The translations under genes and the position numbers were made by a program. Under the pieces are notes generated by a model. It was not told the origin of the DNA, did no database searches, and saw only the letters and a list, made by a program, of their open reading frames with translations. A stretch of DNA of 64,000 nt from Saccostrea cucullata (Eukaryota): assembly GCF_032062105.1 (NCBI RefSeq), contig NW_026935559.1, positions 558,001-622,000 on the forward strand, in the 5' to 3' direction. Positions 4,498-64,000 of this stretch are shown here, piece by piece (the stretch's first letter is position 1; every line of letters begins with the position of its first letter).

Positions 4498-4559
4498 ACG
4501 AATTTCTAAAAAATTAAATCCCGCAATGCCTATAAGTAATTGACTTGTCACTTACAAAT

Positions 4560-5890: not shown

Positions 5891-6829
5891 TGTTTTTGTA
5901 TTACCTAGCCATGTAATTTACACATTTTCTTAACCAGTGTAAGATACTATAATTGATGAGGGGCGTCAGTTGGAAATTTCCCTAAGTAGATACAAATGAA
6001 AACTTAAAAGGTATTTGTCTATTGTTTACATTAAAAGAGGGATACTTAAGAATTCTACTGTTCAATAATTGTAACTGAAGTCACTGTCCAAGTGAAGGAA
6101 TTATTTTCATGATTTGGCCAGAAACTTCTTCACCCATATTTACCCAAACCCTTTTATTTTTGACTGAAATTGATGCTCCTAAGGGATGCCATCAGATAAA
6201 GAAATGAGATTGTCCATTTTTTGATATGTTCCCCTGAACATGTACCTTCCAATACACTGGTCACCAATTTCTCCACTGAGGCATCTTGACTTCCTGACAC
6301 AGTGTCCAACCCTTATTGTCCTGCTTGATGACCTTTCAGTATTTTGAGTAGCTATCGGGGTTGTCTGGATAGTGCTCCGAGTAGATGGAGGGGATGCCTG
6401 AATAGTGCTCTGTGTAGGAGGGGTTGCCTAGGGAGTGCTCGGAGATGAAGTTGGCTCAATAGTTCTGCTAGGAATGGTCATCCTGACTCCTTGCTGCTCG
6501 TTGTTGACTGATTTTGTTGTTTTAGTACCTCAGTTTTTCATAGTCAATGTTTTTCACCAGTTTTCGACTTTTTTTGTGTGGATTCCTTCCTGCCATGTAT
6601 CTTTTGACACCATACACCTGCTTCTCTTTGACATATTTCCTGCAAAAAATCTAAAATGTGTCAGAACATAGCAATTGCCAAGTGTTCAAATAAACTTTCT
6701 TAGTTGCAGCAGTTTTAAAAAATTGTCAGAAATAAGTATCAAATATAACAAGCCAAATAAAATGCTTGAATATGTATTGAATGAACTGCTGATATATGAT
6801 TCAAATTTTTATCAACCTGTATTGATTTG

Positions 6830-12962: not shown

Positions 12963-14378
12963 AAATTGTTAGTACATTATATGGATGTTTCATTAACAAT
13001 GCAAATAGAAAAGGTAATAAAGGTGGATGCTATTCTCTTGTTTAATAAACGTCATCCAGTTCCTTTTTTGATGAATGAGAAAATACATTTGATGATAAAC
13101 AAGATATATATATAATTGCAAACTGTACGATAGAATCGCCTTCCTAACAGTTTTGTGAATTGAAACTGTCATTCGTCTTTTGGCAAAATTCTCTCAATAA
13201 GCCTTGGGCTCTTTTTGACAATTTTCTTTTTCTCTAACAGCAAATACCTAGTATAAAATGAGTACTTATAGTTTAAATTTCGTGTAAGTGATATTTAAAC
13301 ATCTAAAGGTTTTCTAAAGAAAAGAATAAGTCATGGAAAATGTCTTTGTCGGACAAACATTGAATATTCTTTATGCCTGAAATATGATGCGTTAATATTT
13401 GTATGGAATCAAATATTGGTCGAAGAAAAAAATAGTTAATTATTGACATACATCTGTTGTCTCCCTTGAATATATGAAGGTATATATTGTGTTGTATGTG
13501 TCATTTAGGAAATGTAAGAATTTTCCTTGAATGAAGTAATATTTAGTGCAAAAACATTTAAACTATACATTCTGATCTTCTTCAATGCTTAAAGTTTAAA
13601 ATTATCTACAGGAAATAAATCTAAAAACCCAGCTTTCGATTTCAGGTCATTACCTGTTTCGTAGCATTCACACACTTGTTGCTCAGGGTTTATTGATCTA
13701 ACTATTTATAGTCGTACGTGTTTTCACGTTACTAATTTCTTTAAAATTTTCAAGTACCGGGTTATTCATGGAAGTTAATGTGCTTTTCCTAAAGGATTGG
13801 TAAGACATTAAATATTTTACTACAAACAACATATATATACATATACAAACATGTATACATGTAAACAGATATATTTTCGGCTCTTTTTTTGTTTACTTTC
13901 TCTTTCATTGATACTAGAAACTGCTACTTTTGATTTTGATACAACAGGTTATACAATGGACATTACAAATATTTCAGTCATATCAATAAAGACAATGGAA
14001 AATGCAATCTAGTTCCTTTATATTTCAATGTATGTCAGTGGAATATTTATGAATTACTGTACTTTATTTTTAACTGGAAATTTCCATGACCTAGAGATCT
14101 ACTTAGTTTGCGCTTTAAATATTAAGTGTCCCTTCCAGCAAAATGTAAATATGTGCATTTGTAATTGTGTTTATTTTTCATGAAAAATCAAATTGGACTA
14201 GGTTTTATATCTCTCAAAAGAAAATAGTTTTTGGTAGTTATTGAGAATAGTTTTAGTTTTTGAAAGTTGATTCTTTATATTTGGAAAATTTGAGATAATT
14301 CGTATTTTTGAATATTTTCCTTGGTTTAAAGAGTGATTTCTTTTCTTGTAGAAAAGGGATTTAAAAAAAAAATAAAGA

Positions 14379-17300
14379 ATGGAATATATATACTTTGTTC
14401 AAGTCGACATAGATGACAAGTCAACATCAGTTGGTTCTCTGCGTTGTTCGGAGTATAAAGATCAACTTCGACCAGGATCCCCATCGTGTGTTCCAAAAGT
14501 ATCAATCAATGATATGGAAGACACCAGACCCATTTTGTATGCATGTTGGAATTCAGGGGCAATAAAATCTTTCTTCTGTCAAATTGAATCAAGGAAAAGG
14601 GAGGCGAAAATTTCTTCTTTGTATTTTCTCAATTTGAGGGTACATTATTTTGCCATCGATTGGAATAATCAGGTATGTAGCATCATTGTGGAAGCTAAAA
14701 ACTTTGCAATAGGCCAAATTCTACTAAATTTGAATTTTCAAAGTGTTCATAATTCTAACGTACTTCCAAAGATAATGTTTCCAAATACTGGACAGCAGTT
14801 AAAGGTAAACAAATTGACAAGCAGAGAGAATAAAATCAAAATTAGACCTCCTTATATTTCTAGGGTTTGTTGGAGATCGCTAGATTTTCTTATAGCCTCA
14901 TCTTGTTTCTCTCTGCACAAACAATTTAGTGTTTTCTTCAATATAGAAGCTTTCCAAAAGGTGCATTTCTTATGTGAACTCCAATGGTCTATATTTTGTG
15001 AAACAAGCTCACCTTTATTCGTTTCAGTGGATTACATAGCAATAAAGGGTTGTATCATTGCAAAACGTATCTTTGAAGTCAATGCATCAACATTTCAAAT
15101 AGAAATGACATCTTTGCTTTTTTCACCGTGCAGCATGCTTCTTAGATTCACTTCACGTTTCAACAGAGCTCGGGATATGCATACAGCTTACCTTTTAAAA
15201 CAACTTTTAAAAGTCTTTGACCATAAACATATCGAAATTGATGAAAATTTGCAAACAAAAGAAAACAAACGAAACAAAGGTAACCCTTATTCAAGCGTCG
15301 ATCCGACGGAAATGTATTGTCTAAGGAAAAACGAACATTTTGAAAACTCTCTGATGACAAAAATCCACGAGTTCTTTCACAACAAATCTGAATCTGATTT
15401 TACTGAGAATTTGGATACTGTTGGTGAAAGAAAGCAAAAAGAATGGCTTTCTTATAATTTCAATAATTTTTTGGAAATTTCAATGTTCCCTGTTTTCCGT
15501 AGAAATGATCTCGAATACTCGTTTCAACAAATTTTGAATGGTACACCCTATCTATCGAGTGAGGTTATGAGATTTGAACATCATCGTTTGAGTTCATTTG
15601 CAAATTATACCAGCAGTGATATACCAAGCGTACTGCTGATGGCTAAGGCCGGGTGGTATGCTACAGGAAATGGAATGGAAACAAAAACATTCTGTTGTAT
15701 GATAACTCATACTGCTTGGAGAAAAGAAGACGATCCATTTCATGTGCACAAAGATCTTTATTACGAATGTGCATTTATTCTGGGTTCAAATTTGGATCAT
15801 GTATCAATTCAGAGAGAAAATCCTGATTGTCAACGACGTAATTCCGATACCAACAATTCAAATCTTTCTGAAATTTCGACGAGGATGCAAAACATGGAAA
15901 TTGTTTCATCTAAGCCAAAAGAAGATGAACGAGTAGAGGAGGAACATTTAGTAAATGAATTTAAAATTGACAGGCCTTCAAAGTTATCCTCGAAATTAAC
16001 TCGAAACACATCCACAGCCTGGAGTATTGACTGTCCTTCTCGATCATTATCAGCAAACAGAGGAGTAGACAACTTTTCTCGAAACTTACCCGTTTGTGAT
16101 ATAAACCGCAAGACAGAAGAATCTGCATTAAATGAAGTCAGATCATTTGAAAACGATAAAAGTAATAGAAAAATAGAATTTACAGATAGCGGAGACGGTT
16201 CCAAACACGTTTTACACGAGCCGGTACTACCACCCTTAGATTTCGCGAAACCAAAACATATCGAATATTCCACGGTGGGGATAAGAATGTCCTCTTTCAG
16301 TGGTTTTCCCATTACTAGTAGAAAGACAGCAAAAGAGTTTGCAGTGGGCGGATTCTACTACAGAGGATTTGGTGATAGAACCACTTGTTTTCAGTGTGGA
16401 ATTAGTTTGCAAGGATGGAGTGTAGATGATGATATATTTGTAGAACATGTCCGTTACAATCCATTATGTCAATACATGAGGCGATTGAAGGGTGATGATT
16501 TCATAAAACTAGTTATGACAGCAACTGAAAACCCCCAGGTAACTATAAATGAACACAAAATAATGTTTCAAAAGTCTTTGACCTATTTCTATTATATTTG
16601 GTGTGATAGTTTATAAACAACTTTAAGAACTGCTAGGCAATATTTTTCTCTATAGACACCACCTTCTCTTTCAAGTTTGAGGGGCGATAAAACATGTAAG
16701 TTTTGATTTTTTTTCCATAGAAATTATTACAATGTGTAGATAAATCTTGTTCATGAATACAGTTGTGGTATAAATTCTCTTCCGTAGCACCTCAGAATTC
16801 TTCTGCAAAAGATATAGCCAGAAAACTTAAAGAAATGGGATTTTCCAAAAATGCAATATCTGCAGCTTTAAACATAGTTGCAACAAAAAATGGTATGTTT
16901 GGTCTGCCTTTGACAATTCAGATTCTTGTTACTATTTAGAACTGTTTTGTCACCAATCATCTGAATAACGTATCAATTTGTTTATGCTGTAAAGGCAATA
17001 GAACACTTTAGTCGGCAATTTACAGGAAATGTGGAAGAAATAAATAAATATTAATATTATTGCTCATGTTGATTTTTCAGTTAGTTTTACTATCCAGGAC
17101 GTTCTGGATGTCGTTGTTGAAAATACAGACATCGAACATAGAAATTCAGTGAACACATCAATTACATCAACAGAGCAAGAAGAAAATGAAGAACATTGTA
17201 ATTCACGAGATAATCTTTCAAATGCTTGTTTTTCTGAAAGTACATCGACTAGTTTTTCAACAAACTTAACAAGTGCCTCAAAGAGCGATTTGGAATTTAA

Positions 17301-24360: not shown

Positions 24361-26643
24361 TACAATGTATATACAATGTATATATTCAAAAGAAAGGAGA
24401 ATTTCAAATTTTTAATTGAAGAAGTAGTTGTCTATGACATCAACAAATCCCGGTTTTAAACTCATCATGATTAATGTTGATAAAATGTAGAAAAGTAAAA
24501 CATATTGGAGTAACTGACTTTTGCAAAATTTAATGCATCAAAATCACATTACATTGATAATGCCCATGAATATGTTACGATATACCATGTATAATATTAA
24601 ATTTACTTTCTTGAGGAGGGGGGGGGGATAAGAAAAGTTGCATAACATATATTTATTAAGTAATGTCATGTCCTAAATTTTGAACTTATAGGGTAGAAGA
24701 AAAAAAATCAGAACATGTCAAAATCAGTAACATTCATAAAGAAGCGTCGTCGTGTACTGTATTTTCAAGGTTTTTCATTGATGATCCCCTGAGGTAAGAT
24801 TGTGATCACATACTAGTATGACATTTAAAATTATACATAAGAATACTCATATGTAGGAAACATTTCTAAAGTCTTTTTTATTTTCTTTCAGGCAGTATAT
24901 TGGATTAATTTATAAAATAGGAAATTTATTTTATTTTGTTTTAATTTTTGTCCATCAATAAATCTACGGTCTATCCAAATTTTCATTCCACTGTGATATG
25001 TGTATCATTTAGTTTTGAATCTGGAAATCAAGAGAATAAGGAAATAAAATTTATGTAAAAAATTAAATATTTCCTCGGTGTCAATGCATGGTTAAATGCT
25101 TCATACCTCGTGAAAAAAGGAAACTAAAATTTAGATATGAAAAAAATTCTCCCCAAAACAGCACTCAACACTCTTACATTGTCTACAGAGCCTTGAGGCG
25201 ACGAAAATGTTGTGAAAAAAGAAAAGAAAAATAAAATAGTTCGAAAAACATCATAAATTTTATCTAAAAATAGATTTAAAGTTATCTTGAATTGGATCAT
25301 GTTTTATTTAAATGGCTTGGTTTAAAAAGGTGTTTTCCATGCCTTATTTTCTGCGCTGATATATATCTGGTTTATTTTTGTCCAACTACGCCATTATCTT
25401 ATATCTAACTTGTTTGTCATTCCTTTTATAAGAAGTACTCAGCTTTTTTCTACAAAAATTAGTTTAAAAAGGTTAGAGAAATTAAAGATGAAATGATTTA
25501 TAAATTCTTTACTTATATTAGGAAGAGTCGCTTACTTCGAATGTTTTACTTTTATTGGAAATGTTTCCGTATTTAAATGTATCTTTTAAATGCGCAGAAA
25601 TAGACAGACCTAGTGCGCATTATGATATATTTATACATTATTTCATTTCTAGAATTTTAAAACAAGAACGCAAAAAACAACAAAAATGCGCAAAAAGTTT
25701 TAAAAACACGTATGCAGAAAGCTCGAGAATGATATATTCATACATTATTTCATCGCTAATTATTCAAAACAATATAAAAATATGAAATAAGGTAACTTCA
25801 GATGATTTAAATCCATTACTTTTGGGAGGTAATTCATTCAAGGGTTATCGTTATTTGCCGACACACCAGGAAGAAGCAATGGAGCAGGTACTCTTTCAAA
25901 ACATTTGCAAAAATTGTTTATTGTGGAAATGCATTTTATATGATTATATATATATATAATTATGGAACTAACTACATTGAACGTTTCTGAAAAAAAAAAT
26001 GAATTAAACATCAAATCTGTAGGGTTTTTAAAAAAAAAATGATTTTTCAACTTTCGTTTTGATAGATTAGCTTATACAGATTAAAGATTTTGATGAAATC
26101 AAATGTAATTTGATACATTTGGTTATATAGCATTGACTATTAGTAACATTTTCATTTGGATTACCTTTTAAAGTTTATTTATATATATTCCAACAGAATA
26201 TCTTTTTAAACATATATTTATATACACGCAAAAACATTGAGGAAAGTTTATATTATAAGGCTAAATATAACCTTTTCCGGGTCAATATTGATACTTGGGT
26301 TGTGTCGCGAGAATAACTATGTCAGCTTGCAAGGCTGGTATGAATATACAGGCTTGATACGAATAGTTTGGCGTCATGATAGTATATCGAAAATACTTAA
26401 TTATTATTAAATATATTTAAGAAAATTAAATGCATTTAAGATATCATATTTTCATTGTGTTACATTAAAAGTTTACATTTCAATTTAACTTATCTATCAC
26501 AAGCACCACTCTATTCAATAAAACTTTTTTTCAGGCGTATATGTGTACATATCTCTAAATTACTGAGACTGTTTTCCTATCTTCATACCAAATCCAATGA
26601 TGATTATTTAGTGACTTCCACATCAGACAATACTTACGGAATA

Positions 26644-29205
26644 ATGAAAAGCGGATTAAAATTATGTGAGGGCAGTATGAGGCTATTGATACCATTTGAT
26701 AAACTGAAAGATTGTTGCAACGAAAATGTAAATTTACATCAGACGAAGTTTTTACTCTCCTCGCCTAAAGCAGACATTGATTTGATTAAAAGGTTCTTTT
26801 CATATCAGGTACTTGCTGGTGTCCTTTTGTACAAAAGCTTTTTACATCAAATACTCATTGAATACATATTGCATAATGGAATAAATGTTTCCCCATTGGT
26901 ATGGGAATTCATACGCAGAAGTTCCATATCACAAGAAAATAACACTACAGACGCTGATGATCAGGAAAAGAATGATAACGAGGCTAGGGGAGAAAGGTAC
27001 AAAGATCCTTTAGGGAAAATAATCAAAAGCCCTGTAATTATAAATTTTCATATCAGTAATACTTTAATAACTTTTAAAGCATCTTTAAAAGATATTAAAG
27101 TAACTGAAAACAAATTAAAAGAGAAACATTTAACACTGCAAATGTTATCCACTGTGAATAAAGAGAGAGATGCCTTTCATTGTAAGGAAAATAAATGGTA
27201 TAAGGAATTATTTCTGCGTGAAAGAATAAATCCCCCCATGCCATTTCTGATATTGCCAGGTACAATAAACCAAAGTTTTAATAAACTCTCCCAAGGAACA
27301 CCGCCTGATGATTTTGAAATAATGAAATTTGAATTTCACAGATTAAGCTCATTTAGCAACTTTACCTTTCCCGATGTACCTAGTTCTATAATTTTGGCCA
27401 AAGCAGGATGGTTTGCAACAGGAAGCGAAAAAGAAACAAACACTTTTTGTTGCCTCAAAGTATATAGTAGATGGAAAAGAAGCGATGATCCGCATTATAT
27501 TCACAAAATGTTATCACCTACTTGCTTCTTTATATTAGGGAAAGATATTGGACAGATTTCATTTCATGATAGGGCTTTGAATGACAACAATGAAGCATCT
27601 GTGGATAATTCAAGGAATAATGGTTACCTTCCTGGAAATCAGCATAGACATTATAGTAATACATCCCAAGAAATTTTATACCAGAGAACTAACGATGTGG
27701 AATCACTGACGGATGAAATTGGCCAATCTTACACAAATCCAAAGGTTTTCAAAGAAGAATTAAGCGAGTGTGACAACGAATCGTTTGCCCAAGAAAGCGA
27801 AAATCCTGAAATACATTCTACAAACAATGTATCGCATTTGAATTGGAGCCTATCAGATGCAGTATATCCAAACCAATCAGAAATTGAAGCGAGGATAGAA
27901 AGCTTTTCAATGATTAATAAGTCTCATTATGCATTAAAAATTGGACCGGGCTCAGAAAATTTTGTTATTGCGAATAAAACCGCGGAGGAATTTGCTAGAG
28001 CTGGTTTATTTTACCGTGGATTCCGCGACAGAACTTCTTGTTTTTACTGCGGGATAGGTCTTCAAAATTGGACCTCCCTCGACAATATCATACTGAGACA
28101 CTACCAATCAAGTGGAAATTGTCCTATAGCTCAGGCATCAATACATGAAATAGATGCTGATAGAAATACATCATCAAGTAAGTCAATTTAAGTGTAAAAA
28201 CCATATAAAAATTGCAATAGATTACATGTATACACCTTCAAAACAAAAATTCCGCCGAAATATGACTGAAAAATTGCCGACTCGACGTTAAAAAATATAC
28301 AATCAATCAATCAAAACACAAAAAAAAATTTATATAAGTACCTGGAATTTGCAGGACAGGCATCCAGAATCCTCTTTAAGTGATCTATAATTTTTTTAAG
28401 GTGAGAATAGCGTTGCGGCTTCTCCGAATCAGAGCAGAGGGTATCCTCCAGATATGGAGGGAATTTGTGCTGAACTAGATGAAATGGGATTTGATGAGGA
28501 GTTAATCAAAGCGGCCATTGAAAGTTTAGGGCATCGGGGAAGTGAGTAGAAATGAAAAAGAGATATGTTTAATACAATAAATATATCTTTAAACATAATG
28601 TTATGATCAATTACACTTTAAATTATATTTACAGATAACAATATACTCAGTATATTATTGATACTTAATGGTGATTGTTCAAAAATTGTGTGTACTTTTA
28701 AAAAGTCTGACAAGTTTTCGTATTTGAAAAATAAATAACAAGATATATATTTTTAAATTCATGATCAGTTACCATAAGCCTAATAATTATACTTTCAGTG
28801 ACATGCACCAAAGAGAGAATTGTGAATGAAATTCTAGACAATAGAGCATCCTTGCATTCTGGATCGTCGATTTCTGGGAGTGCCGAATATAATTCATCAG
28901 AATATCAAGAATCAATAGAACCCTTGGAAAATCCGCGCATAGAAACGGCTTCCGGTGAAAATGCCGAAAAACCAACAGCGCCTGGTGAAAAGATTGATAC
29001 GACAGCATCTACTTCAAACCTGAGAGAACAGTCTGATGATGAACTGCGCAGGCGCGTCACGTGTAAGGTCTGTTTGTCGGAGGAAGTAGGGGTTCTTTTT
29101 CTACCCTGTAGTCATTTGGTATCTTGTGTCAGTTGTTCTCGGAGGTTAAAGAAGTGCCCCTTATGTCGAAAACATATTCAAACAAAACAACCCATGTTCT
29201 GGTAA
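26644..29205 (+). CDS. IAP/BIRC gene 3, at least 693 aa (exons 26535/26644-28177, 28401-28541, 28799-29205): orphan N-terminus, BIR1 (Cys->Thr), BIR2 with insertion, UBA, RING
   Basis: RLSSF..AGWFATG..TFCC-x16-H-x6-C; AGLFYRG..CFYC-x16-H-x6-C; UBA LDEMGFDEELIKAAI; RING CKVC..PCSH..CVSC..CPLCR; phase-1 GT-AG junctions. Start is uncertain: acceptor at 26534, first in-frame ATG at 26644. Confidence 0.88.
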
Positions 29206-29648: not shown

Positions 29649-32442
29649 CTAATATCGGCATTTACATGGCTTGCCCTGTAATGAAAAAAAAAAAATTCTC
29701 TTTAGTATCCTTGCATTCAAAAGACATAAATCGTGATCTAAACGTAGAGCTGAAGTAGAAACATACCGCCTTCAATTCACAAATGTAGTAGTGTTCCTTC
29801 ATACAGTTTTCTACGTGCCAGTGGTATCTATACGTGTGCCACATTATACCACAGTGGTAGTCCTTGTGTTGGTGGAATTCCGGCTCGTCTCCAAACCAGT
29901 CAAACTTGTGACACAGCGTGGTGCTGAACCCCCACCTCCAGCTGTGTTTTTCTATGTCAGATAACTCATTAAGTCCTATCCAAGCCCCCTGGTCAACTGA
30001 ATATGAATACAAACATGTTTTATTTCATGTCAAGCGTGATACATTTTCGACTGATTAAAAAGAATAAAATTCAATGTTATCAATTTAAAAAAATATCTTA
30101 AATCTGCATATGGCTTTTGCTTTATATTTGGACATATGTTGTCCCTTGCTATGCACGACTGATTAACGTATAAAAACTAACTTAAAGAATCTATTACATA
30201 AAGAGAATGTCTATATGTTAAAAGCGTACACAAACATTGAGCTAATAATATTTTCCAGCAGATAATTTGAACAATGGTGAACTTATTTTTTTTTAATACA
30301 TGTTGATTATTAAAATCTGGTTTTATATTCTATAAAATTATATAAAATACTTGAATATTTTTCAAACTAACTTTCATTGGATATAAGAAAATTTCTGAGG
30401 TAAGTATTCTCATGGGCAGTGTTTATGACCGCCAAGTAGCCGCCCATCGACGCACAAGTCATCTGCAAGAAAAACACCAAAATCCAAAACTTATCTTCAG
30501 GTGTTCAGACCATTATTCTGTTACATGCATAGAATGTAATTGTACATTTTTTCAAGAACTATTAGACACAAATTTTGTTTGTTTGTTTGCATTTTTAACG
30601 TAAATATTCAAAGCGAAAATTTGATATACTTTAATTAGTGGGAAGATTTTTGCAAATATTCATTATGATAATGTGTAGTATTGATTTTCATCTCGTTGTT
30701 ATTTACTTTTTGAAAAATATTTCAACACATAAAAACACTATATTCTAGAGACATCTAAACTTACCGTAGCTTTATACCAGCTAAGTTCGTCTCTGCTAAA
30801 GTAATAACAGCTATCGTCATACTTTAACCAAGCATAGGGACAGCTATTATTTTCAAGGTGTGGCTCTACTGTATTCAGTCTGAATGTTTTAGGCTGTTTC
30901 GGGGGTGGAGGAGGAGTTTTTAGTCCGCTGATATCTATTCCAGCTTTGTAAGATCCAAGGTGGTATCCTTTCTTGTTGTATCCCTTAACATGTGATGGTC
31001 GGTACTTTTTAAGATAAGTCTTGTAGTATGATTGGTAGTTTCCTTTAGAATAGGATCCGTCAAGATAATGCAAATAAATTTTTGGATAGTATTTTTGTAG
31101 GTATGTCCAGTACGCCTGACTATACCCACCTCTGTAGTTTCCTGTGTGGTACAAAATGTTTGTCCCAGAACCTCGAGCCCTATAAGAATTTTTCGATTTT
31201 TTGTATTTTTGTTTCTTAGAGTAACCTCTTTTCATGTTTCGTTTGCCTTTCTTTCGATAATATGAAACCTTGTAATATTTAGTTTTTCGATATCTTCGAA
31301 ACGGTCTGCGATAACGTCGTCTTCTTACACGGCGATAAGTTGAACGGTACTTCCGTCGAATGTAATATCGACGGCCAAGAAACGCATTCCTATATGAACG
31401 TTTTACAATATGGTGCGAACTTGTAGCACTCGTCAAATTATTATGGGATTGTCTTTGTGGTATGAAAACTGGATTCTTTAGTAGAGATCTCAGTCCATAC
31501 CCAACTACAGCTGCAGATTTTATTTTTTGTGCCTTAAATGTTGGACTTATAGATATAAACAGTGGATATCCTTTTAAAGAACCAGAAAGAAGCAGACTTC
31601 GAGGATGGACCTGTTGAGTCGAGCTAGGCAATGCACCATATACCCTTCCTTTTGAAGACAAATTCTTTATCAATTTCCACAAAGACTTTTGAGATAAAGT
31701 TGGAGTAAATTTCACAGAAGGATAAGAATTTGAGTTTTCATTTGTGTTTATTTGTTTCAGTTTATGTAATGGCTTAGCTATTGGCTCACGGTGCAGAACC
31801 CAGCGATACCCAGAGTGTGTACCTAGGTTATAGCGCTTCGCCCGCTTTTTACCAGTTGTTACTTGTGCCTCATCCATTTGATTCATGATTTTTCGAGCAT
31901 TAAGTTTATCCATGATATCATTCATCTGAGGCAGGGGTTCCCCAGGGTTTGAATCATTAATAGTTGTTGGTTCTGGTGTGGTATTAGGGTCAAAAGGTTT
32001 CGTTACCGTTTCGTCCCACGAGTAAGATTCATTTGGTTTAGCTGTTGTTTCCCACGAGTAAGATTCAGTTGGTTTTACCGTTGTTTCCAACGAGTACAAA
32101 TCAGTTGATTTTGTTCCAATTTTTTCTAATCTTTGCTTTTGTCTTTCTTTTTGGGTTTCCTCTGTTTTTTCTAATTCACTTTCGACACGAGGATCATTTG
32201 GATAACTATTATCTTGATCATCACTCCCGGTTAAACCATATGTTGTGAAAGCTAGGAAAAAACGTTTTTATTGACTCTAGTTTTTGATAACGTACTAGAC
32301 AAATAAATTTTCATGATGAAGACTATATCAGCTAATATTTAGTTTCCATTATCTTTTTAATAACCACAAAAAAGATTGAAAACTTACCCCATACATAGAG
32401 AAGTAAAACGAGTGTTAGTTCAACAATGGATACTGATGTCAT
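29649..32442 (-). CDS. Secreted 629-aa protein: signal peptide, acidic/Thr-rich repeats, Arg/Lys/Tyr-rich domain and C-terminal C-type lectin domain (exons 32442-32388, 32251-30765, 30462-30372, 29996-29767, 29675-29649)
   Basis: MTSVSIVELTLVLLLYVWA signal peptide; CTLD CPYAWLKYDDSCYYFS..WYKAT|MTCASMGGYLAVINTAHEN..|AWIGL..EPEF..HCG..WHVENC..YICE; terminal exon GKPCKCRY*. All junctions are GT-AG and in phase. Confidence 0.9.
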
Positions 32443-41479: not shown

Positions 41480-41620
41480 NNNNNNNNNNNNNNNNNNNNN
41501 NNNNNNNNNNNNNNNNNNNNNNNNNNNNNNNNNNNNNNNNNNNNNNNNNNNNNNNNNNNNNNNNNNNNNNNNNNNNNNNNNNNNNNNNNNNNNNNNNNNN
41601 NNNNNNNNNNNNNNNNNNNN
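41480..41620. other. Assembly gap (N run)
   Basis: Run of n characters. Confidence 1.
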
Positions 41621-52903: not shown

Positions 52904-53406
52904 AATATTGAAAGTAGATTCAAAATCTTAATTTATTTTACATTTGACAATCCGGAAGACAAGCCCCTATATGGCATAAACTGGATGAAATTATGTAAAA
53001 AATGTCCTATCTCATGTTACAGCTTTTGCAATCTTAAGTTACACGCAGCTTTTTGCAAACTGGTTGTACCTCTTTTGATTATAATACGGGAGTCAGTTGT
53101 CCTGTTTACAATTTAACATTTGGATTGGTTTTAATAAAAGATTGTTTATATATATCATATTTGAATTCATTTCAATATCTATTCCTTTGAATATTTTCTC
53201 TTTTATTGCTTAAAATGAAAAAAAAAAGTGAAAACAAAAACGTGTCCAATCTCACATATCGTCAAATTGGGGATTTAAAACCCGGCCCTACTTAGTACTA
53301 GATTTACCGCCTTCTCAGAAGTTGGTCAATACCAGCTAGAACCAGAAGCGGACTATTAACATGATTAAAATAATTTGAGTCTGCATTATCATTATGTCAG
53401 ACTGTA

Positions 53407-56400
53407 ATGATTGTTAGGTTTATCACGAAGACACTATTTGCGAAGCCACGGACAAATTTTCTACTTAATAAGATGGAGGATTCCAAAGTCAGAGCTTTAT
53501 GTGACGAATTCTGGGACTGGAGGATGCGTCAAAGTCCGGAGTTTGCCTCATTCTGCGGAGATCAGAGATATTGTCATCTTTTGGATGATATCGACCCAGA
53601 CAATTTTGAGGAGTTTGAGGTAAATTTTGAGTTATCAACCACATGACATGGTGTATTATTTAATCTTTAATTAGACAGTATTAGAAATAATTCAGAGCCT
53701 AGTATTGATAATGTAGATGCATGCCTAACCTTAGAATTCAGTATTTTTTAATTTAAAAAACAGTTGTGTGTTGACTCTAAACCTGTTCTATTCAGTTACA
53801 CAAGGTCATCCATTTGAGTTTTTTTTTCATATAATTTTTATGTGAAATGTTAACTCAGTGAGATTCATAGAGACTTGTAACAGGATAGGAGGAAATGTAT
53901 GGCTACTGACCGGGAATCTAACCCAGGACCCCTGCATCACTGGTCATTGGTCAAGTGGTCATGTGCTCTACATATAGCTATCGAGGGAGATATCCATGGC
54001 CAAAAGCATTACATTCCCCCCACCTTAAATGGTATATGGCCTCAGAGCCACAACCCAAGTTCTTCATAATTAGCCCCTGGCAGAGCTTTCACCTGCAATT
54101 CCAAGTTCAATGGCACCATATATCGATCTGAAACGGAAAAGGAGGAAATGTATGACTGGACCAAACTATTACAGACTAAAAGTTTTGGTCTGGTGTCTCT
54201 GTGAATCTCAGACTTAGTGTGGAAGCATTCTTGGTAGTGTAGATTCTAAATTTTACAAACCATGAACCCCCTGGGTAGGAAGGGCTGGAATAGGGAATCC
54301 AAATTTACATTGAAAAATGTAGGAAAAATCTTTAAAACTCTTCTTCTCAATAACCACTGGGCCAGAAAAGCTGAAACTGATGTGGAAGCATCCTTGGGTA
54401 GTGTAGATTCTAAATTGTCCAAATTAAGACCCCGTGGGGTAGGGTGGGGTCACAATAGGTATTACAAAGGGGAGGAGGCATCTGGTAAAGAAGAACAGGT
54501 TTACTCAGGTGAGCGATGTGGCCCATGGTCCTGTTGTTTCCAATGGCATTTGGATAATTGGATTCTGGACAGAAAATGCAAATATATACAGCGTATTAGA
54601 TGCATGGTGTATATTTATGTGATGTGAGTTGCCAGTGACCAGTCCTGTTGTTTAAGGGGCCAATGGCATTTGATATAATTGGCCATGTCCCTGAAAGACC
54701 TGCCAGAGAATCGGAGTATATATAGAGGCCAAAGACCTTTTAGATGCATCGTCGCCAGTATATTTATGTGATGTCTGACCAGAGATTCAGGGGGTCTGCA
54801 GGGGTGTGCAGTGACCAGATAAAGTTACTAGCCCCAAGTGAAAAGTTACTAGCCCAAATATAGGGGCAAAAATTAAAATAAAAAACAATACATTGAAAAG
54901 AAATTACTTGTTGAAAAATGCAGGGTACTGAGGTCATTCTTTTTAAAATTAAAGTTTAATTCTCACTATGAAATTAAATCATGTATAAATTATAATGAAA
55001 GAAGATTAAAATGAATTTAAATAAATTCTTTCCCATTTTTCTGAACATTGCACTAGCTCATTTAGAATGAAATTTAAATTTTGTATTTGGTGTATTTTTG
55101 CCATGTAAAACCTTAGCTTTCAGTTAATTGAGTGATCGTAAATAATTTCAAGATACCATGTATTTACCATAAACGAAAGAGGGAAATTGGCGGAAAAAAG
55201 ATGTTTTCAGGAGGCCAAAGACCTTAAAGGTGAGAGGAGCATGTGGTGAAAACTTTTCACTGATGGGAATTTGATAGCAAAAACGAGTGAAAATGCAGGT
55301 TGTGCTTTTCATGTATTGCTTGTGTAGTTATAATTTTTACATGAAAATCACTAGCCCGACCCCAAAAAGTGATAGCCCCGGGCGTCGGGCGATGCTAATT
55401 GCACACCCCTGGGTCTGGGTTCGAATCACAGTCTGGTCCATTTGCATATTATAATTATAGTACTACTCTTACATCCTTTTTGTATAATTTACCATAATGA
55501 TAAAAAAAGTTATAGCCTCTTAAATTCAGAATGGTATTAAATGATGTAAAATGAAGAGTGTTTTACTATTTATTACCTTCTTGTTGGAAAAACTTTGCAT
55601 AAACATAACTAGTTTTGTAATTTATTTATTTTCAAGTGCTAAGCCCCTGCATATGCCTTTGTTTGTTTATCTCATTTGATTACATGGAAGGCAAAGGGAT
55701 TTATCAGTTTTATTATACATATGTAGGTTACAACTTTGTTTATTTTATTTTACAGGAAGATGTTTCCAAAATGTTAGAGAAGGCAGAAGCAATTGAAGTA
55801 AAGAATTGTTCCAAACGTGCCAGGAATGCCCTCTTACTTGTGAAGGATCAGATGGACACATTTGTAGATGGAATGAAGCATAAGTGGTTAAGCAATAGTA
55901 ATATTTACTTCAAGGATCACAGATATCATTTGTTTTAGGCCAACAATAAAAAATGATTTGTTTGAATAACTCAGACCAGCCAATCAAAATTGCCCCTCCC
56001 CCCAATCATTTTTTCAGCTCTTTGTATTTAAATTTTTTTTTTAGCAATAAATATTTAAATATTTTTACGATGGCCTTAGAGATACTGACAAAATGGTCAA
56101 AATCTAACAAATCATAGAAACTATATCAATTTATACAGTTGAACTTCGGTATCTCGAACACCAGCTTTGTCTCGAATACAGTGGATATGTCAACGTGATT
56201 TGGAAGTCCCAACCACTTACCGGTATTCTTTAAGTATTTTAACTTTGATTTCTCGAATCATCAGATACCCAGGTTTTTCATACTCCTAGGTCCCACTGAG
56301 TTCGAGATAACATTTAACAAACAATCTTAGAAGAATGGTTAATATATTCAGTGGCATGAAATGTAGTAAACAGCTTAATCTTGATGAATTTTAGTAAGGA

Positions 56401-59400
56401 AAGAAATATAATATCCAGTGTAATTTTTTCAGCTGGTATTTTCCAATCAACTTTATGGATGGGTTGCATGCAGATGCTCCTAAAGTAATGAGTACCTGCC
56501 CAACCAAAACAGAAGAAGACTTCAAAAATCTGAATAAAAGAATTAGATGTTATGAAAAGAAGGTGAGTTGGTGATCTTTATACTGTAAAACGAGAAAAAT
56601 TGGCGCATAAGCACTTTGGCACAAATGCAAGTAGGAATGCATTGACGCAAATAAATTTTAGTGCTTGCACTGTCATTAAAATATGTAAATGTGATATTGT
56701 TTTCTTTTATCTATGCCCGTATTTGACTTTTTGGTTAGTCAAGCATGGAAACACATAGCACTCCCGTATATAAGTAACTTGACATTCGTCAACTTGACCA
56801 TGGTGTTACAGTCACATGAGCGTGGCACAATGTCTATTTTATTTTAATTTTTTTTAAAAAGAAAACGATGAGTATTTACGCAATTTATCCATATTAAAAC
56901 AATGCATGCATTTAAAGGAAGTTGCATGTACTTAGATACATTGTAAATGGTAATCAAAATCAGGTATTGTCTGCAAGTTCAATCGCCATGCTTGATTGCA
57001 ATGTTTACCTCGAGGCGATAGATGATTGACACATGAGACGCCAGACTTTGAAGGTGCTAATTATACTATGTAAGTATCGGGTAACAACTAACAATAGTTT
57101 AATTAAATTATAATTTGGCAGAACTTTCTCTATCGATCCTACAGTGCTAGTTTGTATATAAAAATCCAATGACCCTTCGACATTACGTAATCGTACGTTC
57201 CGGTTTACATGTACTTATGTGAAAACTTTGAACACACACAAAAAGTAATATTTAGAAATCCATTAGCGCACAATAAATTTTAGCGTCATGGGGCATTTAC
57301 GTCAAAGGCGCTAAAATTAGTAGTGCGCCATATATTGTCGTTTTACAGTATGCAATACAATGAATACATGTACCATAAAAATTGTGAATACGGTAATTAC
57401 AGAAAAACAGTTTAGTACAAACACGGATTTTGCGAATTCAAAGATATAGTGAAGTTATTTTGGATCCCCAGCTATATAAATTTAACGAATTCCTTACATG
57501 GATATAACGAATTAAGGATATAGCGTTGCTTGAAAATCAATAGACCATAACAAAATCAGGAGAGTTATTTGTATAAAAGCCAAAATTATACCTGTTGTTT
57601 AAAGTTTCAGCTATCGATTATATTAGAATACAAAAATACAAATTTTCGAGTAAACCTTCAGTTTTGCTTTATAAGCATAGTTTTGTAGCTATTGTTAACT
57701 TTTGGAGTAGAGATTTTTTGTTTTCTTGTAGGCCAAAAGTTGTATACACCTTCTGAAAGAGGGAGTGGACCACGGTCATGTTAACCATCTATACTCAATA
57801 GTAAGTCAAATTTATACTTCACTTCTGTAACTTATATAAAAGATGAAATGATGATATGGACAGTTATATTGTTGGACGAAATGGTCTATTATTGTTGTGT
57901 GTACCATTTAGGAGGGTGTACCAGATCAGTTAGATCTGTTGATCAGTGCTGAACTGACTCCAGAAACAGATGTTTTTCTAGCACCTTACAAAAAGTTTCC
58001 TGCATCCATTGATCCCTCTATAAAGTAAGTGAAATAAAACTTACAGAAATTACTCAGTTCATTTTCTCAAACTTTTAAAGACTGAGATTAGACTTGATTT
58101 AGTCACTGGAGATTGTTTAGCATCAATGCTTTTTAGATTTATAGTGGTCATAAATTCATGGGTCTCTTCATGCCTCAAAAACAACAAAAATTGAACTCCA
58201 AGGGAAAAATAGTACATTGTAACTTCACCATAAATACAGACCTGTGAATAATTATAAAACAGAATGATTCAGGGTCTGTGAAAAAGAGAAAAATTCTGTT
58301 ATTTTATATTGAACATGGTGCATTTTATTTTTTTGCAGGTCTGAGACAATAGCTCAATTAAGTGAATACATCTAATCAAAGATTGTCCAGTTTCTGTCTT
58401 ACATAGTGTGCTCTAAATGTTCCCTACTGATGAAAAAATCCTTATAGTTCAAATGAAAAACCATGTCCTCTTTTAAAGGGAGATAATGTAGAAATTTGGT
58501 TGTTTTCTTTTTTTTTTTCCTCAAAAACCAAAGAAAAAAAGATGAAATCACATATGGAGGTTTAATTTTTATTGGTCTTGTAGTATATTTTTGGTTTACA
58601 ACAAAATGCTATTTTTTTAAATACTAATAAGAGTATCATGTGTCTTCTATAACCACTGAATTAAATCTCCTCAATCCAAAATTTTTTTCAATCCTCAAAA
58701 ATAAAATCGCAGTAATTTGAAAGCAGAACACAACAAATACATATATATATATTTTTGTTCATTTTTGACTTCAGAGAACAACTTTTAGAAGAAGCAAAAG
58801 ACATAATCCAAAACATTGTAAGACCAGCATTTAAAGAACTGGCTGAATATATAGAAAATGTAAGTATGTAATTAGGACCCTGCAGTGCATGTACCTTAAA
58901 GTTATCAATTTGTCAATCTGTTTATATGTTTCCTTTTCAACCTATCTTGCTCATACTCTGAAAGTGCCCATGCATAAGTATAGGGTATGCAATGACCTTG
59001 ATTTAAGTTCTAGACTTAAGGTCAAAAAACGCCAGTGTAAAACACTTGACTGCATCATATTTTCCCTCCCTTGGGCCTATCGGGTTCATTCTTTACTTTG
59101 TTAAATTCCCAGTTGTAAAGCAATGACCTTCAACCATATTTAAGCCAGAAGTCAAAGTTCTGAGCAAATTATTTTTCTTGGATATTTTTTCATGGATCTT
59201 GATTTACCTGACCAGTTCTTGTGATTAATTTGTTTGCAGTGACCTTAAACCAATGTCAAAGCAGTACTCTGTGTAAAAATTGAGGATTTCAAGGTCAAAG
59301 CAGCCTTTTTTTATCAATTAAGACAAATGTTAGACTTTGTTCTTGGGCCTATGTAGCAAATATTTACCCCTAAGAGTGCCCTCAGGTATTAAAAGTGCAC

Positions 59401-62400
59401 AGAGTGTTTGAATTATATATATTCTTAACTTATTATGCGCCCGGATCGATAGATCCGAGGCTTATATTGTTTTTGTCCTGTCTGTTTGTCTGTTTATCTG
59501 TTTGTCTGTCTGTCTGTTGTCAACTTTAACCTTCGCCGTAATTTTTGAACCATGAAAGATACAGACTTCATATTATGTTTGCATACTCCACCAATAAAGT
59601 TCTTTCGAATGACACCAAGGTCAATGACCTTGGGACCTTGACTATGACCTATTTGCTAAAAATAGCTTCTTTGAATTTTCGCCATATCTTTTGAACCATG
59701 AGAGATAGAGACTACATATTTGATATGCTTACTCCACCAGTGACGCTCTTTCAAATGACACCAAGGTCAATGACCTAGTGATCTTGACTGTGACCTATAT
59801 GCTAAAAATAGATTTTACAAAATTTTTGCCATAACTTTTGAACCATGAGAGATAGAGACTTCGTATTTGGTGTGCATACTCCACTAATGAAGTTCTTCAA
59901 ATGACACCAAGGTCAATGACCTTGTGACCTTGACTTTCACTTATCTGCTGAAAATAGTTTTTTTAAACTTTGTTGCCGCCGGCGCATAGTGTTTCACAAA
60001 CACATCTTGTTTTTAATGTTAAAAATGTCATGATTTATTTAACAAATGATTTCCTTAAATGTGCATGCTTACAGATGGAGTTTTTCCTATGTGGAGTTCA
60101 GGAAAGATCATGTTTACCTTGACTTGTTCTGTTCCATTCTAGGATTATATGAAGCACTTGCGTGAAGATATATCCATTCACTCCCTCCCGAATGGGGAGG
60201 AGTTATACCAGGATTGTCTAGATTTCCATCTTTCTTTCTCAATGACCCCACAGCAAGTGTTTGACATTGGGACGGCAGAGGTGGAGAGAATCACGCAGGC
60301 GATGCACAAGATCACCCTTGAGGAAGGCTTCGGAACAGATATTATGAAGTTTAAAGAAGACATAGTCAAGAGGGAGGAGTTCCATTGCAAAACTCCTGTA
60401 GGTTTATTTGGTTTTTTACATAGGAATCATGTTGTGGCTATACAGTAAAACTCGGTTATAGCGAAGTCCTGGGGACCTGCGAATTTACTTCCCTATATCC
60501 GTAATTTGTTATATCCGTATAACGAATTCTTATAACCATATGTAGCGAATTCGCAATATGAATGTTTTCTCTCAAGTATTAGAACCAAATATGTTAGTGA
60601 AGGAAATGACAAAACAAACGTTCGATATCTAAGGTTTTATTATGAATCGAATTTTATATACAAATGCTACAAGAAAAAAATTAAGTTTGTTCAATTTAGC
60701 AAATTTTGAGATCTTTGAAAGTTCTTTATAAAAGATGTAAATTTCATTATATTTAACCTCAACGGGTCTCAAAATCAGTTTGCTATATCCGTAAATTCGT
60801 TATATCAGAGTTCGTTATAATCGTAAAATTTTACAAAGATTTGTTAAGAACCAAAATTCGCTATATCCGTAAATTCGCTATATCCGTGTTCGTACTAAAC
60901 AAGTTTTACTGTATAAGCATGTTTGAAATATAAAATTGTTTTTTTTTCCTATGCCATTCTCACATTTGTTCTCTTTCTCTTTTACAGGAGGAGCTGATAG
61001 CTTATGTCAAACATATATGTTTTGACCAGATTCAACCAAAGTTACCACAATTATTCTTTGAATCTCCAAAGTCCAAGCTAAAGTAAATGTTTCTCTTGCT
61101 CTCTCTTTGTCTTCTCATCAGGAAAAGATTAAGAATGTGAGATCTGAATATTGATTAAGAAAGTACACTATAACAGGCTTATATTGAATTGACATTTACA
61201 GCCAAGTGATAATCATTCCCCTTGGCTGTAGAATAAATTTTGAACTCGGCGATTCACTTTTATATTGAAGAAAAATCGTCTGTCCCAGGAACTTTGTTAT
61301 AAGCTTGTTTTTACTGCTTTATTTTTCTCTCTACTTCATGCTTATAGATTTAGTATAATTTTTTAGCTTGTTATCTGTACACAGTACAAGATTATCTGTT
61401 GAAAGGAGAATAAAATACTATGATAATTTACTATACTGTTTTATTTACCGTTAGGATTGAGCCGACTCCCCCGCTGATGGATGATGGGCCTGTGGCATTC
61501 TACTTCAATGGTTCCCCCGATGGCTCTAGACCTGGTGTGTACTATATCAGTACATCTAACTTGGAAGTAAAGTATGTCATAAGAAACATTTACAGTGCTC
61601 ATACAGTGCTCCTGATAAATGTCTATCAACCCTGCTGACTGTTAATGCTCACTGGAAACGTGGACATTTACATGTTAAAAAGATATTTTTAAGGAAATAT
61701 GCGATTAAATTTTTTTTATGCAAATGCCTTTAATCATATTTGATTTGGTTTTCACAATGCATAAGCCCTGTATGGCAGGAAAAACCCTTAAAATTATATC
61801 CCACTTCTTATTTGTGTAATAAGAGAGTGTAAATAGCCAAGTTTGCAGTATATGAATCGCAGGCACTTGTTTTGTGTACTGGACACCCCTTACTTATTTT
61901 ACCACAAGGCACTTAAGTCATTTTACTAATTATTACTTATTAACTTACTTTAGAATGATAATGTTTGCTTCAAGAGACTTTTTTTCTTGTCTATTAAATT
62001 GTTTAAGACATCTCTGGTAGAGCCTCTTTATTGTAAACCACTCATTTATTCCTGAAAATTACATCAAGACATTTTAAGACTAGATGGGATTCAACTTTCG
62101 GGTTGGGGGTACAATAAACCCAACCAAAAAGTATCCCATCCAAAGTTTAATATGTATCAAGGTCTAAAATAATTTTTTTGACAAGAAACAAGTCTCAAGA
62201 AGCAAATGATGTCACATTTTAAAGTAGGTTAATGATTGATGTAGTAACTAAATATGAGCTTGAAGCAGGGGTGCCTGAAAATTATTAAAAATAAGCAGGG
62301 GTGTCCTGTATTTGAAATAAGTGCCTGTGACATGAATGCTACTTTCTGTGAACTTGGTGCAGTATAGTAATTTTTGTGTAATTTATTTTCAGTCCAAAAT

Positions 62401-62982
62401 ATGAACTACCAGCTTTGTGTTTACATGAAGGAGAGCCTGGGCACCATTTTCAGGTCAGTATCTGGGTTGATTTATGAAGTCTGACACTCTGATATACATG
62501 TATGTTAGGTGTGTCACATGCTCAGGGAGAAAGTTGTTTTAAGTATCCATTATACTAGATCCAGGAGTGGTTTATCTCGAGGTTTTTCCTCGGCCCCATC
62601 GAGTTTGAGATTTGACTGTATATTGAATTTAAATGTCCATAGTAATTTTAATAAAAGGATGTTGCTTTATTATGAAAAACATATGAAAATAAAATCTTGC
62701 ATATAAATAAATTGCAAAACTAAACTTGTTTGATGCCTTGGTTGCAGTTTTTAGTGCTTTGAATTAGGCCTGGTTCAATGGTATCTTCAACATATCATTT
62801 TCCCAGGTTTCTGAAAGAAATTTTACATGACTGTGTGAACTATTTAAAATTTTTAACAATATTGACTCTAGGGAATGATTTCTATGGAAATGAAGGAGCT
62901 ACATGCTTTTAGGAGAGCCAACGAAGATCTGAATTATGCTTGGGTACCTTCTAGATTTCCAATGTATACTGCATATTTAGAG
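53407..62982 (+). CDS. DUF885-family putative metallopeptidase-like protein, first 460 aa; 3' end beyond the window (exons 53407-53619, 55756-55886, 56433-56562, 57732-57800, 57912-58024, 58775-58859, 60143-60397, 60988-61082, 61455-61571, 62393-62453, 62872-62982)
   Basis: Eleven phase-consistent GT-AG exons. DUF885 hallmarks: SPEFASFCGD, LPNGEELY..L.FH...TPQQVFDIG..EVERI, AFY...SPDGSRPGVYY, LCLHEGEPGHHFQ, YTAYLE (GWALY expected next). Confidence 0.9.
54215..54540. mobile_element. Cg170-type satellite / non-autonomous Helitron-Helentron 3' fragment
   Basis: Two GTGGAAGCAT.CTTGG.TAGTGTAGATTCTAAAT units about 164 bp apart and the terminal CAGGTGAGCGATGTGGCCCATGG..CTGTTGTTT typical of oyster repeats. 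Confidence 0.75.
54799..55411. mobile_element. MITE (hAT/P-like termini) inserted into a tRNA-derived SINE head
   Basis: Perfect TIRs CAGGGGTGTGCA / TGCACACCCCTG; GGTCTG duplicated on both sides; the B-box GGTTCGAATC follows. Confidence 0.8.
56581..57350. mobile_element. TA-flanked MITE
   Basis: TACTGTAAAACGA..TGGCGCA / TGCGCCA..TCGTTTTACAGTA. Confidence 0.8.
59430..60012. mobile_element. Non-autonomous Helentron (pearl/DINE-1-like) element
   Basis: 5' hairpin CGGATCGATAGATCCG, (TCTG)n microsatellite, three ~147-bp core repeats (TTTTGAACCATG at ~59543, 59689, 59836), 3' GTGTTTCACAAACAC hairpin then T-run. Confidence 0.85.
60443..60911. mobile_element. Tc1/mariner(pogo)-type MITE; a related partial copy lies at ~57400-57530
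   Basis: TA-CAGTAAAACTCG ... CAAGTTTTACTG-TA with subterminal TTCG(T/C)TATATCCG repeats. Confidence 0.82.
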
Positions 62983-63452
62983 GTTAGTGTATTTAAAAAT
63001 TATAAAATGTTATGAATTTGTAGTGTATTGGTAAACTTATACCGATGGTTTAAAGAAAATACAGACCTTGGTGTATGTAATGTTTTATATATGATCACCT
63101 TAGTCTCTCAAATGACCCATAAATTGCTATCTATTTTTGTCCCCTGTTTGTGGTCAAAATTTTTTTGGAACTTATTCAGCTTTTCCACAGAATTTCAATT
63201 TCAACCACATTTAGTTGTGGGTATCGATGGAAGTGAATAATGGATAATTCCAGGTATCTGTCTCCCAGGGGCCTGAGGGATTGTACCAAAACAAATGATA
63301 AGCAGCTATAATTTATGATTTTACAGTTGTCATTGTATTTTCCAAAAACTTTCCTTTTCCTCTCTTTAAAAGCTGAAAAGGTAAATGTTAACTGCATCAC
63401 TTTGTATCCCTATAATACCTTGTCTTTCAATATATAACAATTTGACAATGCT

Positions 63453-63609
63453 TAAGGACTCACTGTGTAGTTTGTTGGGTATGCCAGGGCATCAACAATA
63501 GTTGGAAACATGGGATAATTTGCAGAAGCCCATTATGCATAAATTAACCCACATTCCAACTACTGTTGATGTCCCTTGAATACCCAACAAACTAGACAGT
63601 GATTCCTTA
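63453..63609. mobile_element. Fold-back (palindromic) MITE
   Basis: TAAGGACTCACTGTGTAGTTTGTTGGGTAT... / ...ATACCCAACAAACTAGACAGTGATTCCTTA; arms about 70 bp. Confidence 0.8.
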
Positions 63610-64000
63610 TATTTCCATTTCATTGTAAAAAAAAATTGTAAATTTAGTTTTAAAAAATGTTTTTAGATTTAAAATGCATGAGGTTTTCAATGGTCCCTGC
63701 CCACTGACGTCAGACACAAAGACAGCCGCAGAAAACTTGCATGCATATTAGGCTTTATTAGGTCCTAACCTTTTGCTTGGCGAAATTTACATATTGGTTA
63801 AATGATCAAGAAATCAACTCACCTAACTTTCAAAGAGTTATCATAGGGAAAATAAACAGAAATGGAAATATTGTAAAATCAACAATACAATTCACTCTAT
63901 TCAGCAAAGTGCTCCCTATCCTTTATACAAGATTTTTATTGTATTCGATGATAGAGAAATTTTTTATCATATTGAATTATTTATAATGCAGTTAATCTCT

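Follow-up and report, generated by a model that had tools for sequence, protein, structure and literature searches.

Why does an oyster carry an intron-rich gene of DUF885 (PF05960), a mainly bacterial protein family, and what might its product do? The gene lies on the plus strand of a stretch of 64,000 nucleotides of the Saccostrea cucullata genome (contig NW_026935559.1, positions 558,001 to 622,000), which as a whole is called the window here and to which the positions below refer. An earlier note on this DNA had recognised 11 spliced exons between 53407 and 62982, assigned them to DUF885 and offered two origins, an old horizontal acquisition or a patchily retained ancient gene. Our analysis points to an expressed gene of 15 exons, which encodes 601 residues and probably derives from an old eukaryotic ancestor; the product is likely a gluzincin-type zinc peptidase that acts inside the cell; taken as a whole, this reading is held with moderate confidence. 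The family is known but has not been studied, and the oyster gene represents a eukaryote variant of it.

Family membership, gene structure and expression

By profile search, the oyster gene is a member of DUF885, as had been supposed. Exon 7 alone matches PF05960 with 39.6 bits (E 6.7e-10) and exon 14 with 56.4 bits, both above the curated cut-off of 32.4, and the orthologue from Saccostrea echinata (LOC133185430, hereafter P0001) matches it with 432 bits over positions 1-532. Compared by sequence with solved structures, P0001 matched only the three DUF885 entries (3o0y with an E value of 2.4e-65), and a search of NCBIfam gave no meaningful match. The HExxPGHH and EGWxLYxE motifs are both present in the 601-residue oyster translation. 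At E<=0.001, 12,360 homologue representatives were found, and the DUF885 Atlas clusters are 95-100% bacterial. The oyster protein is identical to P0001 at 548 of 601 residues (91%), which identifies the host as an oyster.

The exons in the window lie at 53407..53619 (coding part of exon 1, whose transcript piece begins at 53318 in the RNA), 55756..55886, 56433..56562, 57732..57800, 57912..58024, 58775..58859, 60143..60397, 60988..61082, 61455..61571, 62393..62453 and 62872..62982. Joined on the plus strand, the 11 exons give 1380 nt, or 460 codons with 0 stops, and the borders are GT..AG at 10/10 introns. The exons are thus real, but the end of the gene had been set too early: the complete gene has 15 exons, 14 introns and 601 amino acids, and it extends past 62982 by four exons. 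A PF05960 profile search of the oyster's own genome gave an extra match about 4 kb beyond the window end, and exons 12-15 lie, in window numbering extended past that end, at 66547-66611, 66721-66792, 67673-67842 and 68545-68663 on the plus strand (4548-4612, 4722-4793, 5674-5843 and 6546-6664 of locus L011), where they supply GWGLYCE467, R492, R495, Y544 and the stop. The first part of intron 11 occupies 62983..64000 and the intron continues beyond the window. HEGEPGHHFQ, encoded by exon 10, starts at 62424, and YTAYLE, encoded by exon 11, ends at 62982; no EGW is visible in the exons of the window because intron 11 falls between E460, in exon 11, and the GW, in exon 12.

The RNA evidence comes from two studies and covers introns 1-10. 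Joints were found at 10/10 of these introns in runs X8 and X10, at 9/10 in X9 and at 10/10 in the transcript contigs of X2, which together with the splice borders and the 460 open codons bears out the claim that these are spliced exons of a host gene. The reads carry fixed differences and therefore come from a close relative, not from the sequenced individual; the very high read depth over introns 1 and 6 is drawn by repeats there. Purifying selection on the gene is shown by the ratio of nonsynonymous to synonymous substitution rates (dN/dS), which in comparison with two close paralogues is 0.14 over 360 codons and 0.18 over 231 codons, and by the RNA, in which 23 of 26 single-site differences in exons are synonymous and 3 are not; these 26 were taken from 40 of about 500 difference rows with six clustered sites excluded.

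Translation from the first methionine (M1) adds a basic extension of 22 residues, without an acidic residue, ahead of M23, at which many orthologues start; similar extensions are seen in a few other oyster sequences. M1 and M23 are a possible dual start, for a mitochondrial and a cytosolic form. By a crude rule, a mitochondria-like score was obtained in only 5 of the 49 proteins of the gene's own class (30 of the 49 were short), and mitochondrial targeting of the oyster protein, as judged from its N-terminus, is a weak option. Two short out-of-frame ATG frames lie upstream of M1 at 53361-53417 (plus strand), and the RNA contig of the relative has an 11-base gap at 53358.

Putative metal site, fold and possible reaction

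The earlier note had described HEGEPGHHFQ and YTAYLE as intact parts of a putative metal-binding site, and the wider alignment agrees with it. H414 (62424-62426), E415 (62427-62429), H420 (62442-62444) and the residue predicted to be the third ligand of zinc, E460 (62980-62982), are kept in 405 of 410 sequences, that is, in 176/181 of the eukaryote clade described below and in 229/229 others. E467, R492, R495, D499, R533 and Y544 are near-invariant among the homologues, as is Tyr380 in exon 9, and E460-x6-E467 is spaced like the HESQ..E of two M32 proteins with which it was compared. A site residue is missing in the other 5 of the 181, among them Chlorokybus (P0262), which reads H-Y with W at the second His and N at the third ligand, retains the eukaryote insert and, judged from these replacements, is likely inactive. 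DUF885 has been placed in Peptidase_MA in a report that predicts a His-His-Glu catalytic zinc site for another member (PMC12572635), and IPR010281 is listed where the zinc sites of solved structures are annotated, with the site unspecified (PMC4539273).

An AlphaFold model of P0001 (predicted local distance difference test score, pLDDT, 95.1) was used as a 91%-identical stand-in for the oyster protein in the fold comparison. It matched 3o0y with Z 42.5 and a root-mean-square deviation of 1.8 over 559 residues, 3iuk with Z 34.2 and 3u24 with Z 28.0, the template modelling (TM) scores being 0.86-0.90. The comparison with zincin folds that had been proposed in the earlier note placed gluzincin carboxypeptidases nearest after DUF885 itself, at Z values of about 11: M32 (10.8-11.7) and MATCAP (11.3-11.4), followed by M1 and M3 (about 10) and ACE (about 8.5). 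In the wide search, ranks 4-34 were peptidase-fold zincins or near to them. Taken singly, the Z values below those of DUF885 are modest, but almost every entry as far as Z 8 was a zincin-fold peptidase. Membership of M32 itself was considered and rejected, since of the motifs listed for that family (HEXXH, DXRXT, HPF, HESQ and IRXXAD, along with GXXQDXHW; PMC7918520) none was seen in the translation by eye, and P0001 had no match to PF02074 (M32) at E<=1. In the model, the helix stops at the HE pair, GEPG forms a loop and a new helix begins at the second His; the DUF885 site is, as modelled, a zincin helix interrupted by a two-residue insertion.

The mechanisms of M32, Dcp and ACE were used as the model for a possible exopeptidase action. 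Zn2+ would be held by H414, H420 and E460, E415 would act as the general base that activates water, and Y544, which lies in a YKIG segment resembling the YTLG of M32, would steady the transition state or intermediate. The invariant R492 and R495 may hold the terminal carboxylate of the substrate, and short peptides would be trimmed at or near the C-terminus inside the cleft of an all-helical body like those of M32, M3 and ACE. The eukaryote insert stands just ahead of the helix that bears E460 and would shape the cleft. Such an enzyme would be an exopeptidase limited to oligopeptides and comparable in this to M32, Dcp or ACE. We consider it likely that the oyster product is a zinc peptidase, whereas C-terminal trimming is suggested tentatively.

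Several observations count against a peptidase. The motif is HExxPGH rather than HExxH, two residues longer; H421 could replace H420 as the second ligand; Z values of about 11 are in the range that helical bundles reach through common arrangement; and a comparison of profiles by hhalign, in which M32 was represented by two sequences, fell short of significance (probability 0.03, E 0.97), its alignment pairing only the YKIG and YTLG segments. No measured activity for any DUF885 protein was found in the literature, subscription journals and supplementary tables lying outside the search, and no recurring partner family was seen among 106 same-strand neighbours of 80 prokaryote homologue loci from GTDB (3 amidohydrolases, one S9, one S33, one TonB receptor and one tandem DUF885). 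A zinc hydrolase of the same fold could instead act on a non-peptide amide or an unusual peptide linkage and not be a general peptidase, and the unusual HExxPGHH with its extra invariant residues, the weak similarity to characterised peptidases, the 3 amidohydrolases among the 106 neighbours and the reported fusion of a fungal DUF885 to a nucleoside-phosphorylase-like domain (PMC8478523) would fit this. However, nearly all characterised fold neighbours down to Z 8 are peptidases, and the lengthened motif is compatible with catalysis because DPP III and TMCP/MATCAP, described as proven peptidases, carry HExxxH (PMC10499314). We regard this alternative as improbable and prefer a zinc peptidase. 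Almost no credence is given to the remaining explanation, by which the gene would stem from contaminating bacteria, be a pseudogene or encode a protein that binds without catalysis. The five eukaryote-clade sequences without a site residue, Chlorokybus included, would suit a non-catalytic protein, but the low dN/dS and the intact site argue against it; contamination and a pseudogene are refuted by these two observations together with the 14 spliceosomal introns, the RNA joints and the animal inhibitor-of-apoptosis (IAP) and lectin genes nearby.

The eukaryote insert and the probable origin of the gene

The eukaryote proteins are marked by a 13-residue insert between HExxPGH and EGW, which in the oyster gene is encoded by exon 11 (residues about 440-454). 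It is present in 172 of the 181 eukaryote-clade sequences and in 0 of the 229 others, when scored as an HExxPGH-to-EGW distance of at least 42; 225 of the 229 stood at 37 or less and 4 were unmeasured. The insert is conserved, its first Pro being kept in 97-100% of each eukaryote group. Of 80 metagenome loci, 79 are without the insert, and the one that has it (L110) is on a short intronless contig.

The homologue listing for P0001 comprised the best 120 of 3884 hits, in which bivalves, gastropods, octopus, chiton, Capitella, Lineus, horseshoe crabs, ticks, spider and crab were found, as well as two hemichordates, amphioxus, Hydractinia and the sponge Sycon. Further animal homologues come from jellyfish, anemones, coral, Priapulus and Tigriopus, and protist homologues from Syssomonas, the green algae Chlorokybus and Cymbomonas, the dictyochophyte Pseudopedinella, the diatom Leptocylindrus and the dinoflagellate Gymnodinium, all five groups being represented in the eukaryote clade. 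Among the matches listed (best 120 of 3884, with look-ups), none of those with a name comes from a vertebrate, an insect, a nematode, a fungus or a land plant. Because vertebrate orthologues should have ranked next to amphioxus, loss in vertebrates is plausible, and from these matches both vertebrates and insects appear to have lost DUF885.

A FastTree phylogeny was built from 410 sequences, 78 of which belong to named prokaryotes of GTDB. The trees left out 27 proteins whose length fell outside 480-760 aa, 2 GTDB frames that were too short, 1 row with many gaps, 32 cluster members and 19 two-domain proteins. The animals form one clade (support 0.992, 158 sequences), its sister consists of 23 protist-side sequences, and the two together have a support of 0.95. 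In an IQ-TREE analysis of 69 sequences (LG+F+G4), from which the insert columns had been removed, the eukaryote-side sequences were again separated, with 96.3/94 for 35 of them and 94.1/60 for all 39. No prokaryote group was the close sister of the eukaryote clade in the FastTree or IQ-TREE analysis. Approximately unbiased (AU) tests were run on 32 sequences with 5000 replicates and fast constrained searches: six trees that joined the animals to a single prokaryote sequence, apart from the protists, were rejected (0.0001-0.037), although softly because the constrained searches are noisy by about 20 log units, and a tree that joined the animals to Syssomonas was not rejected (0.32). Taken together, the insert and the trees show a single old branch of eukaryote DUF885. 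As to vertical descent across supergroups, a pattern that the earlier note had raised, Opisthokonta, Archaeplastida and SAR share one clade, but the branching in it departs from the species tree.

Not all of this favours an old eukaryotic ancestor. One eukaryote sequence (P0197, from MMETSP) lacks the insert; in the IQ-TREE analysis animal monophyly is weak (66.7/69) and all eukaryote-side sequences together reach an ultrafast bootstrap (UFBoot) value of 60; the green algae stand apart, with Chlorokybus separate and Cymbomonas paired with the diatom Leptocylindrus (93.9/100). Many tree rows on both sides are without an organism name, and the protist sequences come in part, we presume, from transcriptomes of predators or xenic cultures, which can carry prey sequence. 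The protist topology would also suit a single bacterial acquisition by an early eukaryote, followed by spread between eukaryotes to protists and holozoans in place of descent from the last common ancestor of all eukaryotes, with the function as proposed above; the patchy distribution and the size and bacterial predominance of the family would fit as well. Ancestral descent with loss is not separable from early acquisition with lateral spread, because the protist branching departs from the species tree. The insert-bearing form is nevertheless present in three supergroups, animals with Syssomonas were not rejected, and repeated loss yields patchiness too, and we consider early acquisition with lateral spread unlikely, though a serious alternative. 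Direct transfer from bacteria to an animal or mollusc, with introns gained later, is very improbable. The identity of about 35% over the full length to bacterial homologues and the lack of the named groups among the matches listed could be taken for it, but the insert is common to protists and absent in 229/229 outside sequences, sponge, cnidarian and deuterostome members exist, and the tree lacks a close prokaryote sister, the six constrained trees being softly rejected. Animals nested in a bacterial clade, with other eukaryotes lacking the gene, were not found in the trees, the AU tests or the insert count. Of the two origins offered at the outset, the patchily retained ancient gene is favoured on these comparisons, and a recent bacterial transfer and a transfer from bacteria to animals are both unsupported.

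Paralogues, neighbouring genes and known systems

The PF05960 profile matches the oyster's own genome at 22 places. Stretches on three contigs (C17696, C9211 and C1584) resemble the window gene, and six copies end in a hydrophobic tail, five on contig C11849 and one on C17512. The five on C11849, at about 234600-353100 (L095-L102, L109), are DUF885 genes of the putatively secreted, GPI-like (glycosylphosphatidylinositol-like) class, two of them tail to tail, and by its predicted features the cluster has arisen from local multiplication of what may be a surface peptidase. By a crude hydropathy rule, the tailed class has a signal in 26 of 37 proteins and a hydrophobic tail in 32 of 37, while the class of the window gene has a signal in 3 of 49 and a tail in 0 of 49, the window gene itself having neither. 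The distant, putatively secreted GPI-type paralogue P0098 (16 introns) is identical to the window gene at 211/648 positions, and 14/14 introns of the window gene match it in position and phase in a pairwise alignment (13 exactly and 1 off by one column in a multiple alignment), so the introns are as old as the split from the P0098 class. Molluscs and a second phylum (Capitella; Lineus) occur in each class, which dates the split to the lophotrochozoan radiation or earlier. Animals thus seem to keep two old DUF885 classes, one signal-less and one with a signal and a GPI-like tail, the latter of which would serve as a surface ectoenzyme. Proteins of 1100-1700 aa were also seen (P0155-P0161 and P0307-P0325, from Solemya, Tegillarca, Armadillidium and others), several with two or three DUF885 stretches; they either have their domains in tandem, as somatic ACE does, or result from gene models that were fused.

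Elsewhere in the window, at least three tandem BIR-RING IAP genes lie at 396-29202 (plus strand), with two very long open frames (14376-16613 and 26440-28188), in line with the known expansion of IAP genes in oysters. At 29665-32267 (minus strand), an exon of a C-type lectin lies with a low-complexity frame of 509 codons that has no Pfam match; the two may form a single mucin-like lectin gene. The letters at 41480-41620 are 141 N in a row. Downstream of the gene, a 486-codon frame (L012:956-2413, plus strand) has a weak reverse transcriptase match, which we take to be DIRS-like.

M3 enzymes are soluble and intracellular and ACE is a membrane-anchored ectoenzyme, a division that the two DUF885 classes recall. 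A wider proposal may be ventured, to which we attach less confidence than to the reading of the oyster gene: DUF885 may be an unrecognised eukaryote-wide family of zinc exopeptidases, older than animals, marked by an HExxPGH motif of its own and by a substrate loop specific to eukaryotes, split in animals into intracellular and GPI-anchored forms (compare neurolysin and ACE), recruited into venom, lost in vertebrates and insects, and a missing arm of neuropeptide and peptide turnover in invertebrates. If peptide trimming is true, many invertebrates own a peptidase class, cytosolic and at the surface, that vertebrate- and fly-based catalogues have missed. Three structures have been solved for DUF885, a very large family, and its expressed and conserved animal branch offers tractable hosts. 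A tempting story of horizontal gene transfer (HGT) is also corrected here, in that the "bacterial" DUF of this animal is probably a eukaryotic gene of old standing, obscured because model organisms have lost it.

The description of the oyster product as an uncharacterised animal enzyme was fair, except that animal members are already annotated as DUF885 in databases and one has been described in spider venom. An abundant 599-aa DUF885 protein of Physocyclus mexicanus venom was reported with an M32-like fold and conservation in arachnids, and its authors proposed venom peptide processing (PMC7682650); a gland transcriptome of the snail Raphitoma includes the DUF885 transcript PVC-83 (PMC11359391). 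These are gland products, the spider member being of similar size (about 600 aa), whereas the oyster copy is without a signal peptide. In Dictyostelium, DDB_G0278355 is listed as a candidate for HGT from bacteria (PMC3188802; 10.64898/2026.03.01.708701); this protein and the fungal fusion mentioned above fall outside the named sequences used here and may be separate acquisitions. We found no paper that treats the eukaryote clade, its insert or the division into two animal classes, no relevant one on the three solved structures, and nothing on this gene among the papers listed on HGT in oysters; subscription journals and supplementary HGT tables, which may list animal DUF885, were outside the search.

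The closest relatives of known structure, 3o0y (Colwellia), 3iuk (Arthrobacter) and 3u24 (Shewanella), share with the oyster protein the fold, HExxPGHH, EGW and the full-length profile. The bacterial members compared mostly score as exported by a crude rule; unlike them, the oyster gene has the 13-residue insert before EGW, 14 introns and no lipoprotein signal. The best characterised fold neighbours are the M32 enzymes PfuCP (1k9x), TcMCP-1 (3dwc) and FisCP (5e3x), of which about 365-390 residues align. They have in common with oyster DUF885 the HE..H with a downstream E, the E-x6-E spacing and a late YxxG segment, but they differ in HEXXH for HExxPGH, in an identity of 8-13% and in the M32 motifs, which are absent from the oyster protein. 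MATCAP/TMCP (7z5g, 7z6s), long unannotated and then reported as a proven carboxypeptidase (PMC10499314), are gluzincins whose motif is lengthened, as it is in oyster DUF885. They differ from it in HExxxH, a smaller domain (245-263 residues aligned) and a tubulin substrate, of which there is no sign for the oyster protein. M3 (neurolysin, thimet oligopeptidase and Dcp) and M2 (ACE) have a similar all-helical cleft body at Z 8-10, but they share no sequence match with oyster DUF885 and carry another motif.

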